Source: Planctomycetota bacterium (GTDB taxonomy: Bacteria; Planctomycetota; UBA1135; UBA2386). Taken from it: a DNA stretch of 64,000 bases. The position numbers and the translations under genes were made by a program. The stretch is from positions 448,001 to 512,000 of the forward strand of contig JBKAGP010000001.1 of assembly GCA_046290465.1 (NCBI GenBank), read 5' to 3'. Numbering within the stretch: the first letter of the stretch is position 1; every line of letters begins with the position of its first letter. The notes under the pieces were generated by a model. That model was not told the DNA's origin. It ran no database searches and worked only from the letters and a program-made list of their open reading frames with translations. This document shows, in pieces, positions 1,890 through 7,299 of the stretch.

Positions 1890-3833
1890 TCAATGCCCAC
1901 CGCAGCAGCCGCCGTCGCTCGAAGGGTCTGCAGGTTCGGTGCCGGCAGCGTCGTGGTTCGCACCAGGGTCGCCGTGGTGATGGTGGTGGTGAGGATGGTG
2001 GCCGTGGCCATGGTCGTCGCCGCCTGGTCCGACGTTGGCGGGCGACTCGAACAGCCGTTCGAGGAATGGCCGCACGCCCTGGCGCAGCAGCGACCAGCCG
2101 AACACCGCGGCGAGCAGCCACAGCCACAGCCACGCGGTGGTCGAGGCGTGCGCGTGTTCGGAGAACGCCGCCATGTCGGGCACCGAGACCAGCCAGTTGG
2201 CGACGTAGCCGAGGCCGACCGCGCCGATCCACATCGACAGCGCGAACACCAGCGCGGTGCGCGTGCCGTGCAGCCGCGCCAGCACGCCGAACGTGGTGAC
2301 GTTGGTCGCCGGGCCGGTCAGCAGCAGCGCCAGCACCGCGCCGGGCGACAGGCCCTGCACCAGCAGCATCGCGGCGAGCGGCGTGCTGCCGGTCGCGCAG
2401 ACGTACAGCGGCAGGCCGATCAGCGCCGCGATCGGCACGTCGATGCCGGCCGGCAGCGACGCGATCCAGTCGCGGTCGACGTAGGGCATCAGCATCGCCG
2501 ACAGCAGCAGGCCGGTGAGGATCCAGGTCGCGGTGCTGTCGACCGCCGGGCCGTAGCCGAACCGGACGGCGGTCTTGAGGCGCCCGAGCAGGCCGGTGGC
2601 CTGTCCCGACGGCATCGTGCAGCAGTCTTCGCTGGCGGCGGCTGTATCGACCTTGCGGGCCCGCGCGAACGAGGCGACCAGCACGCCGACGGTGAGCGCC
2701 AGCGCGGCGGCCATACCGGCGCGGACCAGCGCGACTTCGCCGCCCATCAGCTGCCAGGTCAGCATCACCGCGGCCAGTTCGAGTTCGGGCGTGGCGACCA
2801 GGAACGCGATCGCCGCCGCGACGGCGGCGCCCTGCTTGATCAGCTCGCGGTAGATCGGCACGACGCCGCACGAGCAGACCGGCAGCGGCAGGCCGACGGC
2901 GACGCCGCGCAGCGCCTGCGACAGGCGCGAGCCGCGGGTCAGCGACTGCAGCCAGTTGGCCGGCAGGAACGCGTGGCACAGTCCGACCAGGAAGTATGCG
3001 AACAGCAGCGCCGGCGCGGACTCGAGCGCGAGCTGGGTGAAGACCTGCAGCGGGCCGCCGTGCTCGCTCTCGGGGAAGTGGTCGTGGATGACGAACCACA
3101 GCACCGCGACGCCGAGTGCGGCGCCGACCACCGAGGCGGGGCGGAGGCGGCTCTGTTCGCGCGGTGCAGGGATGTGGGCGTGCAGCACGACGTGCAGCAG
3201 CGAGCCGACCAGCAGCGACTGCAGCAGCGCCAGCGCGTTCTGCGAGTCCTCGGTCAGCACCTGGCCGCCGAGGAAGTAGCCGAACAGGGTCGCGCCGACG
3301 CTGGCTGCGGTGATCAGGATCGCGGCGCGCACCCCGAGGGTTCGCGGCACGATCCACCAGATGCCGAGGCCCTCGGGGATGCGGTGCAGGATCACGGCCC
3401 ACGCGGTCAGTTCGTGGGTGCCGGCGTGTTGGTGGCCTTCGTGGGCGCGGCCGCCGGCCTCGAGGAACAGGCCGTCGAGCGTTGCGTGCGCGGCGATGCC
3501 GAACACGGCCAGCAGGATCACCGTCTTGCGCATGCCCTCGTGGCCGTGGTGGATCGTGCGTTCGGCGATCGACGGCAGCACGAATCCGAACAGCGCCAGC
3601 GGCAGCACCAGCCAGCCGGCCTGTTCGGCCGACTCGGGCAGCAGGTGCAGCAGCGCGAAGCCGCTGATCGTGATCAGGCAGAAGCTGTCGAGCGCGACGG
3701 TCGACCACGCGTGGCTGCGCAGCAGGTAGACCATCAGCGGCCCCGCACACAGCGCCAGGAAGCCGAGCGCCAGATACCACTCCGACGACAGCGTCGCCGG
3801 CACGGCCGGCCAGAGCATGGAGAACGACAGCAA
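1890..3833 (-). CDS. Metal transporter fusion: N-terminal ZIP-like domain + ArsP/SO_0444-type permease, His/Cys-rich tail
   Basis: ZIP-type HATLDG...HRIPEG motifs; permease motifs LPVCSCGVVP and PLYVCATGSTP; tail HGHGHHPHHHHHH...GGCCGGH. Start is TTG 3833 or ATG 3818. Confidence 0.8.
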   Translation of the reverse strand: MLSFSMLWPAVPATLSSEWYLALGFLALCAGPLMVYLLRSHAWSTVALDSFCLITISGFALLHLLPESAEQAGWLVLPLALFGFVLPSIAERTIHHGHEGMRKTVILLAVFGIAAHATLDGLFLEAGGRAHEGHQHAGTHELTAWAVILHRIPEGLGIWWIVPRTLGVRAAILITAASVGATLFGYFLGGQVLTEDSQNALALLQSLLVGSLLHVVLHAHIPAPREQSRLRPASVVGAALGVAVLWFVIHDHFPESEHGGPLQVFTQLALESAPALLFAYFLVGLCHAFLPANWLQSLTRGSRLSQALRGVAVGLPLPVCSCGVVPIYRELIKQGAAVAAAIAFLVATPELELAAVMLTWQLMGGEVALVRAGMAAALALTVGVLVASFARARKVDTAAASEDCCTMPSGQATGLLGRLKTAVRFGYGPAVDSTATWILTGLLLSAMLMPYVDRDWIASLPAGIDVPIAALIGLPLYVCATGSTPLAAMLLVQGLSPGAVLALLLTGPATNVTTFGVLARLHGTRTALVFALSMWIGAVGLGYVANWLVSVPDMAAFSEHAHASTTAWLWLWLLAAVFGWSLLRQGVRPFLERLFESPANVGPGGDDHGHGHHPHHHHHHGDPGANHDAAGTEPADPSSDGGCCGGH

Positions 3834-3840
3834 AGCGCCG

Positions 3841-3875
3841 GCAGGTTAGGCCAAGCGCCCGCCCCGTTCTAGTTC
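3841..3875 (-). promoter_or_regulatory. Conserved upstream motif GAACT-N16-TTGGCCTAACCTGC (copy 1, before the permease)
   Basis: Same motif and spacing recur at 5001-5035. Confidence 0.55.
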
Positions 3876-3879
3876 ACGA

Positions 3880-3960
3880 AGGTTGCCGTACGGTACCTGG
3901 TTCATCCTCCAACGCGCTCGCGAACGCTGGCAGGATGAACCAGGTACCGTACGGCAACCT
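3880..3960. repeat. Perfect 29-bp inverted repeat (terminator/REP-like hairpin)
   Basis: Arms 3880-3908 and 3932-3960 are exact reverse complements with a 23-nt spacer, starting at the sigma factor stop codon. Confidence 0.85.
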
Positions 3961-4478
3961 CAGGACAGGGCTGCTTCGATGGTGGCGCGGGCTCGGTGGA
4001 GGCGCGAACGCACGGTGCCGATCGGCAGGCCGAGGCGGTCGGCGACGCCGGCGTAGTCGAGGCCGGTGCGCTCGTACAGTTCGAAGGCCTCGCGCTGCGG
4101 GCGGGGCAGCGTGTCCAGGGCACGGTGCAGGCGCTCGGCGGTCTCGTGCGCGACGGCGACGTGCAGCGGGTTGTCACAGCCCTGGTGCAGGTCGCAGTCG
4201 TGCGAGGCGACGTGCTCGTGGTGGCGACGCCGGCGGGCGGTGCGGCGGAGGTGGCGGCTGCGCAGCACGACGGCGCGCACCAGCCAGGCGCGCGCGTTCT
4301 GCGGCCGCTCGGCCTCGCGCCAGAGCGCGACCAGCGCTTCCTGCACGGCGTCGTCGGCGAGGTGGTTGCAGCCGAGCAGGCGGCGTGCGACCGCGCGAAC
4401 GGCCGGCAGGTGCGGGGTGGGATCGGGGAGGTGCGCGGGCGCCGCGGTGGCGGCGTCGGGCGGGGCGACGTGGGTCAT
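3960..4478 (-). CDS. ECF-family RNA polymerase sigma factor with His/Cys-rich linker
   Basis: Region 2 (ADDAVQEALVALW...AWL) and region 4 (LPRPQREAFEL...YAGVADRLGLPIGTVRSRLHRAR); linker HHEHVASHDCDLHQGCDNPLH. C-terminal part of ORF 3960..6137. Confidence 0.9.
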   Translation of the reverse strand: MTHVAPPDAATAAPAHLPDPTPHLPAVRAVARRLLGCNHLADDAVQEALVALWREAERPQNARAWLVRAVVLRSRHLRRTARRRRHHEHVASHDCDLHQGCDNPLHVAVAHETAERLHRALDTLPRPQREAFELYERTGLDYAGVADRLGLPIGTVRSRLHRARATIEAALS

Positions 4479-4566
4479 CGGAACGGAACAGATGCGGGTC
4501 TCGGCACAGCGCGGGGCTGCGGGCGGCACACCGGACGAGGCGGCGGGCCGCGCGGGATACGAGGAC

Positions 4567-4992
4567 TCAGACCGTTCGGTACGAGGGCGCGCGCGGCGGC
4601 GGCCGCACGCAGGTGGCGTCGACGTCGGCTTCGATGCAGATGGTGCGGAGCGGCGCCGCCGCGAGCGGGCCCGCGGGCACGACGACGACCGCGAGCGGGG
4701 CGCCGCCCGGACTCTGGTCCTCGAGCTGGCACGCCAGGCACGTCGAGCACGGCTCGCCGTCGTCCGGCTGGTGCTCGCCATTCGGATCGAGATCGCCCGA
4801 ATCCAGAGCACCCGAATCCACGTCATCGGCGTCGGTATGCACCACGCCGCACGCGCACACCTCGACCCCGCATGCCGCGCGGTGGTGGCAGTCGTGGCCA
4901 CCGTGCAGCAGCGGCAGCACCAGACGCAGGCACATCGCCAGCAGCGCTGCGAGCGCGGCGAGGCGGAGCTGGAATGGCGTGCGGCGGGACAT
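4567..4992 (-). CDS. DUF2946/CruR-like small protein (hydrophobic N-terminus, His/Cys-rich, CxxC, C-terminal PPRAP)
   Basis: MSRRTPFQLRLAALAALLAMCLRLVLPLLHGGHDCHH...CSTCLACQ...RPPPRAPSYRTV. Confidence 0.7.
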   Translation of the reverse strand: MSRRTPFQLRLAALAALLAMCLRLVLPLLHGGHDCHHRAACGVEVCACGVVHTDADDVDSGALDSGDLDPNGEHQPDDGEPCSTCLACQLEDQSPGGAPLAVVVVPAGPLAAAPLRTICIEADVDATCVRPPPRAPSYRTV

Positions 4993-5000
4993 CGAGCGAC

Positions 5001-5035
5001 GCACGTTATGCCAAATCCCGCGCACCCGCCAGTTC
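5001..5035 (-). promoter_or_regulatory. Conserved upstream motif GAACT-N16-TTGGCATAACGTGC (copy 2, before the DUF2946-like gene)
   Basis: Matches 3841-3875 at 5/5 and 12/14 positions with an identical 16-nt spacer length. Confidence 0.55.
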
Positions 5036-5059: not shown

Positions 5060-5746
5060 TCAGGAAGCCGCGGCAGCCGCCTCCTGCTGGGAGCGACGCA
5101 TCCGGCCGGCGTGTTCGGCGACCTTGGCGATCATCCGGCGCGCGCGCGCCTCGATGACGTCCCAGCGGCGCCGCTGGAGGTCGGTCGGCTCGAACAGCGA
5201 GCCGACGAAGCCGATCCCGAAGCTGCCGGCGTCCAGCCACTGCTCGCAGTTCTCCTCGGTGACGCCGTGCGTCGGGAAGATCCGCAAGAACGGCATCGGG
5301 CCGCGGATCGCCTTGACGAACTGCGCGCCGTTGGCCGGCCCCGGGAACAGCTTGACCATGTCGGCGCCGGCCTTGTGCGCGGTCATCATCTCGGTCGGCG
5401 TCAGCGTGCCCGGGATCGAGACCAGGTCGTGCTGGCGCGCGAACGTGATCATCTGCGGGTCGGTGACCGGCGAGACCAGGAACTGCGCGCCGGCGGCGAC
5501 CGCGTTCTTGGCGTCTTCGAGCGTCAGCACCGTGCCGGCTCCGACGACGAGGTCGGGCTGCTCGCGCAGCGCGGCGACATGGTCGAGCGCGTTGGGCGTC
5601 GTCAGCGTCACCTCGACGATGCGGAAGCCGCCGCGCACGGTTGCGTCGAGTGCGGGGCGCACCGCGGTCGGGTCGTCGGTGCGCAGGATCGCCGAGCAAC
5701 GGTGCGCGGCGAAGGAGTCGAGAACGGCAGCACGGGGGGAGAGCAT
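5060..5746 (-). CDS. eda: KHG/KDPG aldolase
   Basis: EVTLTTP, VGAGTVL, GAQFLVSP, PGTLTPTE and VKLFP (Schiff-base Lys) motifs. Confidence 0.9.
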   Translation of the reverse strand: MLSPRAAVLDSFAAHRCSAILRTDDPTAVRPALDATVRGGFRIVEVTLTTPNALDHVAALREQPDLVVGAGTVLTLEDAKNAVAAGAQFLVSPVTDPQMITFARQHDLVSIPGTLTPTEMMTAHKAGADMVKLFPGPANGAQFVKAIRGPMPFLRIFPTHGVTEENCEQWLDAGSFGIGFVGSLFEPTDLQRRRWDVIEARARRMIAKVAEHAGRMRRSQQEAAAAAS

Positions 5747-5916: not shown

Positions 5917-7299
5917 GTGCAACGACCCTCCGCCAGCGTGCGCCTACTGCTCGCCGCCTGCCTGCTCGTGTGTGTCGGCCCGACGCCGGCGCAGGGCGCG
6001 ATCCCGATCGGCGACCCCGAAGGCCTGCCCGCGAAGCGGCGTGAGGTCGAACGGCACGGCATCACCTGGACGTTCGACAAGCCGTACGTCGTCGGCGCGT
6101 TCGCCAACGGTGATCCGTGGGTGATCGGGCCGGTCAAGGTGGTGGCGATCAGCCCGGAGACGACCGTCGAGGACGGCCGCGCGTTGCACGGCTCGATGGT
6201 CGATCCCGATCCGTCGACCGAGAACCAGGGCTACGACGGCGGCCTCTACGGCAACGGCACCAACGAACGTTACGTCGCGAAGCTCAACGTCGCGGTCGGC
6301 CTGTCCGCGAAGGCGCCGCTGCGGCTGCAGGCCGGCCAGAGCCTGGTCTCGGTCGAGAGCCGGCCGAAGACCGACGCGCCGCCGACGCTGCTGCGCGCGT
6401 CGGTGTTGACGGTGCTGGCGCGAAAGCCCGCGCCCGATGCCTTCCGGCCGCCGTACGTGAAGGGGGACGCCGCGACCAAGAAGCCGCGCTTCCGGGTCGC
6501 CGATCTCGACTTCCGCGCGCTGCAGAAGCTCGCTCCGGTCGGCGACGTGCCGCTGATCGAATCGGTCACGCGGCGGTTCGAGAAGCTGTGGCTCGACCAC
6601 GTGCCGGCGTGGGTCGCGCGCTACATGCACCCGCTCGAGAACATGCCCGACTACGGTCGCGACATCGCCGCGTTGGTCGGCAGCGCCGGGCTGATGCTCA
6701 ACCTCGACCTGCCGAAGAAGCGCAAGCAGGAGCTGTTGGTGCACTTCACGCAGCTCGGCATCGACAACCACGCCAAGCTGCTCGCCGGCTGCCGCTGGCA
6801 CGGCCTCGGCGGCCACGGCCACGGTCGCAAGCTGCCGATCCTGGTGGCCGGCCGCGTGCTCGGCGACGAGCGCATGCTGGCGGTCGGCAAGGACTACGTC
6901 AGCAAGCCGAAGCAGGCCGGCGGCAACGGCGGTTGGTTCGGCGAGGACACGCAGACGTTCTACGTGCGACGCACCGGCGACCGCGAGTGGAACTGGGGCT
7001 TTGGCAACTACACCGAAGAACACGAGGACCTGCCCGAATGGGGCTTCGCGCACGCCGACTCGCCGGACCGCGACGACCACCGCTGGGAGGGCAATCCCTA
7101 CCGTCGCTGCTGCACGGCCAATGGCTGGGTGGCGCAGTGCCTGACCGTTCGTGCGATGGGGCTGGTCGACGAGTGGAACCACCCGGCGTGGTTCGACTAC
7201 ATGGACCGCTACCAGCAGCACGAGCACGCCGAGGACTGGCACCGCAGCTGGGTGCCGTGGCACCCCGCGATGTGGGCGGCCTACCGCGACAAGTTCTGA
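5917..7299 (+). CDS. Secreted hypothetical protein, 460 aa, Trp/His/Tyr-rich
   Basis: Signal peptide ...GPTPA|QG and coding-like composition; no family recognised. Confidence 0.8.
   Translation: MQRPSASVRLLLAACLLVCVGPTPAQGAIPIGDPEGLPAKRREVERHGITWTFDKPYVVGAFANGDPWVIGPVKVVAISPETTVEDGRALHGSMVDPDPSTENQGYDGGLYGNGTNERYVAKLNVAVGLSAKAPLRLQAGQSLVSVESRPKTDAPPTLLRASVLTVLARKPAPDAFRPPYVKGDAATKKPRFRVADLDFRALQKLAPVGDVPLIESVTRRFEKLWLDHVPAWVARYMHPLENMPDYGRDIAALVGSAGLMLNLDLPKKRKQELLVHFTQLGIDNHAKLLAGCRWHGLGGHGHGRKLPILVAGRVLGDERMLAVGKDYVSKPKQAGGNGGWFGEDTQTFYVRRTGDREWNWGFGNYTEEHEDLPEWGFAHADSPDRDDHRWEGNPYRRCCTANGWVAQCLTVRAMGLVDEWNHPAWFDYMDRYQQHEHAEDWHRSWVPWHPAMWAAYRDKF

Follow-up and report, generated by a model that had tools for sequence, protein, structure and literature searches.

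CruR (Bp2923, DUF2946/PF11162) of Bordetella pertussis, one of the closest described relatives of the locus reported here, carries a CxxC 45 residues before a RAPP motif (PMC9426467), and its arrest has been demonstrated (PMC12992588). The locus lies in a 64,000-nucleotide stretch from a Planctomycetota bacterium (assembly GCA_046290465.1, contig JBKAGP010000001.1, positions 448,001 to 512,000; hereafter the window) and consists of a leader, an extracytoplasmic function (ECF) sigma factor gene and a permease gene. The leader shares with CruR a length of about 140 residues, an N-terminal export segment, a CxxC 45 residues before a RAPP near the C-terminus, first place in the unit and a long spacer behind it. 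Unlike CruR, whose next gene encodes a TonB-dependent transporter, this leader is followed by the sigma factor gene, and the prediction is therefore one of control in trans; its surroundings suggest zinc rather than the copper of CruR, and the leader falls below the DUF2946 cut-off. According to our hypothesis the leader is likely a zinc-sensing arrest switch that allows synthesis of the sigma factor under zinc scarcity, and the sigma factor in turn is predicted to serve a scattered zinc-limitation regulon. The three genes, all on the minus strand, are as follows.

4567..4992, minus strand: leader open reading frame, CruR/DUF2946-like, 141 amino acids; a called gene with coding-type GC content at third codon positions
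3960..4478, minus strand: ECF sigma factor, 172 amino acids; Sigma70_r2, Sigma70_r4_2 and TIGR02937, each above its cut-off
1890..3833, minus strand: fusion permease, ZIP-like/ArsP (DUF318, SO_0444-like), with a His-rich tail, 647 amino acids; ArsP_1 at 143 bits

Gene calls and domain matches bear out a preliminary description of these as three co-directional genes rich in metal ligands, and the gene calls around the locus include no anti-sigma gene adjacent to the sigma factor.

Other described systems share parts of this layout. CutF of Rhodobacter capsulatus (PMC9973294) is likewise an exported, DUF2946-like leader; it has a Cys motif, ends in a Pro-rich stretch and acts in cis on the gene behind it. 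Base pairing across the start of the gene behind the leader, also a feature of CutF, is weakly predicted here. CutF differs in its CxxxC and in that copper switches expression on, unmasking the Shine-Dalgarno sequence of a multicopper oxidase gene, whereas the present leader has CxxC and RAPP, no Shine-Dalgarno sequence behind it and a sigma factor as its target. SLIV_33595 and SLIV_33605 of Streptomyces lividans are RAPP-type arrest peptides upstream of ECF genes, and arrest both in vitro and in vivo (PMC12992588); they differ in having four predicted transmembrane helices, the available text describes no metal motif in them, and they are likened here by layout, not homology. CorE and CorE2 of Myxococcus xanthus (ECF238, former ECF44; PMC8999054, PMC7826278) are, like the present factor, metal-linked ECF sigma factors with linker cysteines and no anti-sigma, but they combine a linker CxC with a C-terminal Cys-rich domain, metal activates them, and the descriptions available mention no arrest leader. 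The predicted outputs overlap with those of the Zur regulon (PMC2770081): a znuABC-type operon, COG0523 subfamily 1 (ZigA/YciC), DUF1826 and an outer-membrane receptor. Zur, however, is a zinc-bound repressor, whereas here these genes, and Tad pili in addition, are predicted to be activated by a sigma factor gated by a nascent peptide.

The preliminary description knew of no such arrangement among described systems. RAPP arrest peptides ahead of ECF genes are in fact published for Streptomyces, without a metal link in the part of that source available (PMC12992588). The neighbours listed for CruR- and CutF-type leaders in the text available are transporters, chaperones and oxidases (PMC9426467, PMC9973294), and the term sigma is absent from three supplementary files of the first paper and three small ones of the second, the latter apparently without a neighbour table. 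A literature search for the leader-sigma combination with zinc, Tad or Planctomycetes, whose scope stopped short of subscription papers and supplement file 10 of PMC12992588, found nothing relevant.

Linkage of leader and sigma factor

Ninety-six sigma loci were counted, two from other ECF families (L044, L046) and one on a second, short contig of the same genome (L045, G004) being excluded. A leader stands directly upstream of the sigma factor in 66 of the 96 (64 by script, two by eye), and is also present at 12 of 18 sigma loci from other parts of the phylum. None of the 66 sigma genes with a leader has a -10 element of its own, as against 9 of the 30 without, and the lack of such elements behind leaders fits co-transcription from the leader. 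Synteny across genomes thus upholds the pair rather than the trio: leader, sigma factor and permease are adjacent in only 10 of the 96 loci. Tad genes are the commonest neighbours of the sigma factor (25/96), followed by porin/Znu genes and the permease (23/96 each). To judge from these comparisons, the leader-sigma module is a real, conserved variant of the CruR kind.

The 66 leaders fall into two types: 24 have CxxC and R[AG]PP, and 42 have mostly HxxC-like residues and, about 50 residues further on, a C-terminal AP[KHG]xSPP. The ending AP[KHG][QHNG]SPP (38 automatic cases) is a candidate for a new arrest motif; APKTSPP also occurs among loci from other parts of the phylum. Leaders of this second type lie upstream of the sigma factor at L041, L043, L208-L245, L252 and L261-L264, and upstream of a porin gene at L298 and L300. 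In the available portion of one source, RAPS is found in ApcA-like upstream open reading frames (uORFs), and the only xSPP variant mentioned is RSPP (PMC10987492).

A divergent relative of CruR

The features recognized within and just before the leader are these.

5003..5008, minus strand: housekeeping-type -10 element TAnnnT, 10 nt before the leader ATG
4906..4962, minus strand: hydrophobic signal/transmembrane segment, residues 11-29; Kyte-Doolittle 19-residue mean 2.41
4729..4740, minus strand: CxxC (CLAC), residues 85-88, predicted metal site, 45 residues before the arrest motif
4582..4593, minus strand: arrest motif, residues 134-137; RAPS in the assembly, RAPP in sequencing runs (base 4584)

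The most likely start is the ATG at 4992, which gives the 141 residues. These include 10 Cys and 6 His, in clusters, and a single hydrophobic segment, judged to be of the export type from hydropathy only; four residues follow the RAP(P). Across this genome TAnnnT peaks 6-12 nt ahead of starts (432 of 2822 genes), and of the genes preceded by a gap about 15% carry it 5-12 nt before the start, which indicates many leaderless mRNAs. The element precedes 19 of 24 leaders in the leader's own family (several candidate starts being permitted), and its position predicts a leader transcript that is itself leaderless or nearly so.

The preliminary description took RAPS to be a departure from the canonical RAPP. 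It is present in the assembly, but all three of the four runs compared that cover position 4584 carry the RAPP allele; the sequences compared are contigs, so that a minority allele is conceivable. Over 801 nt this base is the sole difference from run X1 (depth 108), which is near-identical and possibly the source of the DNA. Both other members of the leader's 90% protein cluster carry RAPP, and the best profile match is identical to the leader apart from having RAPP in place of RAPS. The simplest reading is that RAPS is an assembly error, and a single such error can conceal a key motif.

A profile built from 15 leaders, which favours R[AG]PP-like ends by construction, recovered 141 homologues: 92 end in RAPP, 44 in RGPP and five otherwise (R[AG]PP in 136/141), and none in RAPS. 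The spacing from CxxC to motif is 43-47 residues in 133 of the 141, and 44-45 in 22 of 23 CxxC-type leaders at sigma loci; retention of so exact a spacing implies selection. Against DUF2946 (PF11162, cut-off 23.7 bits), 12 of 54 tested homologues score above the cut-off and 30 match at E<=0.1; one of those above it, at 26.6 bits, is the L022 leader, a 52%-identical orthologue. The CruR-like identity proposed in the preliminary description thus gains from the orthologue, the RAPP and the 45-residue spacing, and not from the protein itself, which does not match the family. Judged from sequence, the leader is a divergent relative of the DUF2946/CruR-type uORFs, not a direct member. No second CruR-like leader was found among the called genes of this genome. 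At L030 (G004:C6) the leader end is degenerate (TAPP) and the permease is split by frame changes, through decay or assembly error.

A promoter motif and its predicted regulon

The upstream regions of genes neighbouring the sigma factor have in common a conserved ECF-type promoter, GGAACY-N12/13-YGGCAY. At sigma loci it precedes 18 of 22 porin genes of porin/znuABC-type operons, and three of the remaining four have one-mismatch variants. Where the sigma factor was not found, it precedes one of 21 porin genes; the background is 11 of 4991 equal windows. We infer that the motif is recognized by this sigma factor.

In this genome intergenic copies lie before the Tad secretin gene, the Flp pilin operon, a DUF1826-COG0523 (zigA) operon and a MerC-domain gene; the four sites, of the form GGAACY-N13-CGGCAC, are at G000:C1:1005892, 1010059, 1010086 and 1245418. 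The COG0523 protein scores above the ZigA cut-off, and MerC-domain genes have a link to zinc. Orthologous merC-like genes have the motif in 6 of 7 cases, and pilin genes in 6 of 11. Among close DUF1826/zigA operons it precedes 6 of the 7 that could be assessed, vs. none of five distant COG0523 paralogues. COG0523 subfamily 1, DUF1826 and znuABC are Zur-regulon genes, DUF1826 occurring in Zur-regulated COG0523 clusters (PMC2770081). Two Fur-family proteins were found in the genome, with best scores as Fur and PerR, not Zur. The output of the cascade is thus likely to be a zinc-limitation regulon. A fifth candidate target (a 613-aa gene at G000:C1:216591) was rejected, the motif being absent at 10 of 10 homologous loci, and whole-genome motif counts over 41 genomes were set aside as too noisy, a reversed-pattern control being of similar size.

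Genomes without the sigma factor have the leader directly before the porin gene in 16 of 21 cases – the classic CruR layout – and 7 of these 16 porin leaders match the sigma-leader profile at E<1e-5. At L040, L041, L208 and L211 the leader, sigma factor, porin, ZnuA and ABC genes follow one another in a single direction, an order expected if the sigma factor inserted behind the leader. We infer this order of events, with insertion between leader and porin. A fuller account, plausible to us rather than probable, would be that Zur-type repression has been replaced by a zinc-sensing arrest peptide which, once wired to porin-znuABC, now gates the inserted ECF sigma factor, giving a zinc-starvation switch that acts across the genome and also drives the building of Tad pili, and that the sister AP[KH][QHN]SPP leaders add a new arrest motif. 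If the proposed control of the sigma factor by the leader is true, no zinc-responsive arrest peptide would precede it, and it would also be the earliest case of a metal-sensing arrest peptide shown to control a transcription factor; ECF factors lacking an anti-sigma would gain a further mode of control, in which their synthesis is gated by a nascent metal sensor; an uncharacterized planctomycete ECF clade would be supplied with a promoter and a regulon; and Tad pilus production would be linked to zinc supply.

The prominence of Tad genes among sigma neighbours, together with the leader's export-type N-terminal segment, is also what would be seen if the leader monitored export or envelope assembly in the manner of SecM or ApdP, its Cys and His residues being structural, and so coupled pilus and porin synthesis to secretion capacity; many RAPP peptides monitor Sec or YidC (PMC10987492). 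We regard this as the least probable of the explanations weighed here: the fixed CxxC-RAPP spacing is the metal-sensing signature of CruR, the cytoplasmic zinc genes zigA and DUF1826 use the same promoter, and the annotated neighbours included no sec or yidC genes.

Two arrangements of target genes deserve mention in their own right. A complete Tad/Flp pilus cluster at L127 (G000:C1:1005926-1019377) contains DUF1826-zigA between secretin and pilin, in opposite orientation, with back-to-back ECF-type promoters. The exception among the close DUF1826-zigA operons (L135, G023:C89) lacks the motif and adjoins a Fur-family gene and an ABC ATPase gene, which suggests exchange between sigma and repressor control.

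Proposed coupling of leader to sigma factor

Between leader and sigma factor lies the following spacer.

4479..4566, minus strand: spacer, 88 nt, pyrimidine-rich and A-poor; 41 C, 26 G, 16 T, 5 A

Counting confirms the length and the excess of C over G given in the preliminary description. The spacer contains neither a Shine-Dalgarno sequence nor its own -10 element, and a predicted pairing joins its 3' end to the last codons of the leader. Among 617 co-directional spacers in the genome it ranks in the top 3% for pyrimidine and for YC content. Across the 24 CxxC-type loci, where the gap from leader to sigma factor is 58-174 nt, pyrimidine content is above the background mean in 22 and YC content in 19, the background being taken from this genome alone. 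A Rho homologue is encoded (441 bits vs. a cut-off of 509). Rho-dependent termination at the spacer is possible, but not singled out. Two candidate signals were rejected: the C>G skew, which lies within background and does not prove a Rho site, and a conserved strong spacer hairpin, for which z was mostly 0 to -2 and shared structure was not established. With a ribosome footprint at RAPP, the sigma start of this locus is predicted to become 2.3 kcal/mol cheaper to open. Scans of the locus for a sigma-70 promoter and for intrinsic terminators found none.

The mechanism that we propose would begin with a single housekeeping transcript running from the leader into the sigma gene. By analogy with CruR, the ribosome would stall at RAPP for as long as the CxxC/His domain – which, 45 residues away, would lie just beyond the exit tunnel – is metal-free. 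The stalled ribosome would permit expression of the sigma factor, by shielding the pyrimidine-rich spacer from Rho, by keeping the sigma start unpaired, or both. Metal binding would then fold the nascent domain and free the stall, and the sigma factor would be off. Once made, the sigma factor would read GGAACY-N12/13-YGGCAY promoters: here those of DUF1826-zigA, the merC-like gene, the Tad secretin and the Flp pilin operon, and in relatives those of the outer-membrane porin and the znuABC-type operon. The two-tier switch of the preliminary description (leader to sigma factor to output) appears right in outline, and its output is probably not the adjacent permease; stalling, ligand and polarity are all predictions.

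Several observations weigh against this mechanism. At the leader, neither the protein as assembled nor any other in the genome matches DUF2946, and the RAPP allele reaches 15.1 bits. Thirty of the 96 sigma loci have no leader, so the sigma factor is able to work without one; 39 of the 96 have no marker neighbour (Tad, porin/Znu or permease) within about 5 kb; and the related genomes in the locus counts are not independent samples. The C>G skew of the spacer is matched or exceeded by 16% of the co-directional spacers, and the sigma start is predicted to be unmasked only slightly (a mean of 1.2 kcal/mol over related loci, which as kin are not independent, vs. 0.2 in 150 control gene pairs). As for the regulon, the motif precedes only one of seven porin genes remote from the sigma factor in genomes that have it; its genome-wide over-representation is weak (19 observed vs. 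12.6 expected), so that the case rests on position and conservation; and this genome, a single contig that is 94% complete, gave no match to ZnuA or to the porin. Finally, the SO_0444-like C-terminal half of the permease resembles a family labelled as Cu/Zn efflux.

That last resemblance bears on the possibility that the two-tier wiring is as proposed but the metal is a different one or the response is reversed: binding of excess Zn, or of Cu, Co or Ni, would then lengthen the stall, after the manner of CutF, and turn the sigma factor on. A block by the ribosome footprint does slightly open the sigma start region, and one leaderless lineage has an ArsR-type repressor gene and a His-rich protein beside the sigma factor. 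The genes that bear the motif, however, are those of uptake and starvation (the ZnuA/ABC-3 operon, ZigA above its cut-off, DUF1826), and no copper-handling genes were seen among the annotated neighbours; we consider this alternative unlikely, though not negligible.

The sigma factor as a possible sensor

The sigma factor is made up of the sigma2 and sigma4 domains only, without a C-terminal extension, and its predicted model matches ECF sigma structures. The linker between the two domains is rich in metal ligands.

4146..4223, minus strand: His/Cys-rich sigma2-sigma4 linker, residues 86-111 (H87-E88, C95, H98, C101, H106)

Across the 96 orthologues E88 is invariant, H87 is present in 86, C95 in 34 and C101 in 41; a 37-residue linker window has at least two Cys in 78, including 39 of 39 in the factor's own family. 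The linker is thus well kept in that family and variable beyond it, and a second metal-sensing layer here is possible. Were the sigma factor itself the main sensor, as CorE-type factors sense metal without an anti-sigma (PMC8999054), the leader would be a secondary or dispensable tuner, which would accord with the 30 loci that lack one. Our estimate is that this is quite unlikely. The CxC that is one hallmark of CorE is absent from the linker (C95-x5-C101 stands instead; some distant orthologues do have CxC), as is the C-terminal Cys-rich extension, the protein ending at sigma4; 18 of the 96 orthologues have fewer than two linker Cys, and the exact spacing kept in the leader implies selection on the leader itself. 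Beyond sigma4, 51 of the 96 orthologues have no Cys and four have at least three. Sensing by the leader and sensing by the linker are layers that are not mutually exclusive.

The clade is distinct: matches were found in 87 of 251 genomes of the class and 23 of 301 of the phylum, and the weakest match within the class scores about 120 bits, vs. at most 92 for other ECF factors (five control genomes). Close homologues that carry names are, among the matches listed, from Planctomycetota assemblies.

The adjacent permease

Two features lie between the sigma factor and the coding region of the permease, the second missed by the preliminary description.

3843..3848, minus strand: the permease's own housekeeping-type -10 element TAACCT, 9 nt before the TTG at 3833
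3880..3960, no strand assigned: pair of repeats resembling repetitive extragenic palindromic (REP) sequences, with perfect 29-bp inverted arms

The preliminary description had the cascade end in this permease, which would make it a local one. The ten loci with an adjacent trio are compatible with that, as are the ECF motif in the intergenic region ahead of 3 of 22 homologous permease genes and the lack of a called intrinsic terminator between sigma factor and permease, which makes read-through possible. Yet no ECF motif was found before the permease of this locus, which has its own TAACCT and is separated from the sigma factor by the REP hairpin; 14 of the 22 homologues likewise have a -10 element of their own, and loci that lack the permease still retain the sigma factor. 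We therefore find a local cascade very unlikely and place the predicted targets elsewhere in the genome: the adjacent permease probably has its own promoter, and is here at most a read-through target.

The 29-bp inverted repeat was rejected as a dedicated regulator, since it belongs to a REP-like family not specific to the locus (49 matches to the arms in 42 clusters genome-wide). The pair is absent from the homologous sigma-permease intergenic regions compared.

In the permease itself, ArsP_1 covers residues 262-546 of the C-terminal half (143 bits vs. a cut-off of 32), and the SO_0444 equivalog scores 209 bits (cut-off 300). The N-terminal half scores 26.8 bits against Pfam Zip, below the cut-off of 35.1, weak Zip matches being found in 17 of 22 homologous N-terminal halves, and a sequence-profile search of the PDB with it gave no ZIP match. 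Its structural model (predicted local distance difference test score, pLDDT, 81) has BbZIP as all top 10 Foldseek matches (best E 2.4e-4, TM ~0.5); as modelled, this half has the ZIP fold.

Surrounding genes and other lineages

The locus sits in a conserved frame, with recC downstream (1-1848) and a KDPG aldolase gene upstream (5060-5746). Two genomes (G005, G007) retain the sigma factor within this frame, leader and permease being absent from the locus. A leaderless lineage (L248, L250, L254, L256, L258-L260) has an ArsR/SmtB-like repressor gene divergent from the sigma factor, which we take to resemble the zinc-sensing SmtB; in some of its loci the sigma factor and Tad genes are also accompanied by an FKBP-type gene or by a small protein very rich in His. 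Secreted proteins of about 520 aa without Pfam or NCBIfam matches follow the sigma factor at L042 and at many f10 loci, and may be a further target. Within the window, 5917-7299 encodes a secreted protein that also lacks a Pfam or NCBIfam match; it belongs to a paralogue family, four copies of which are in this genome, and matches occur in 19 of 24 genomes of the family-level group.

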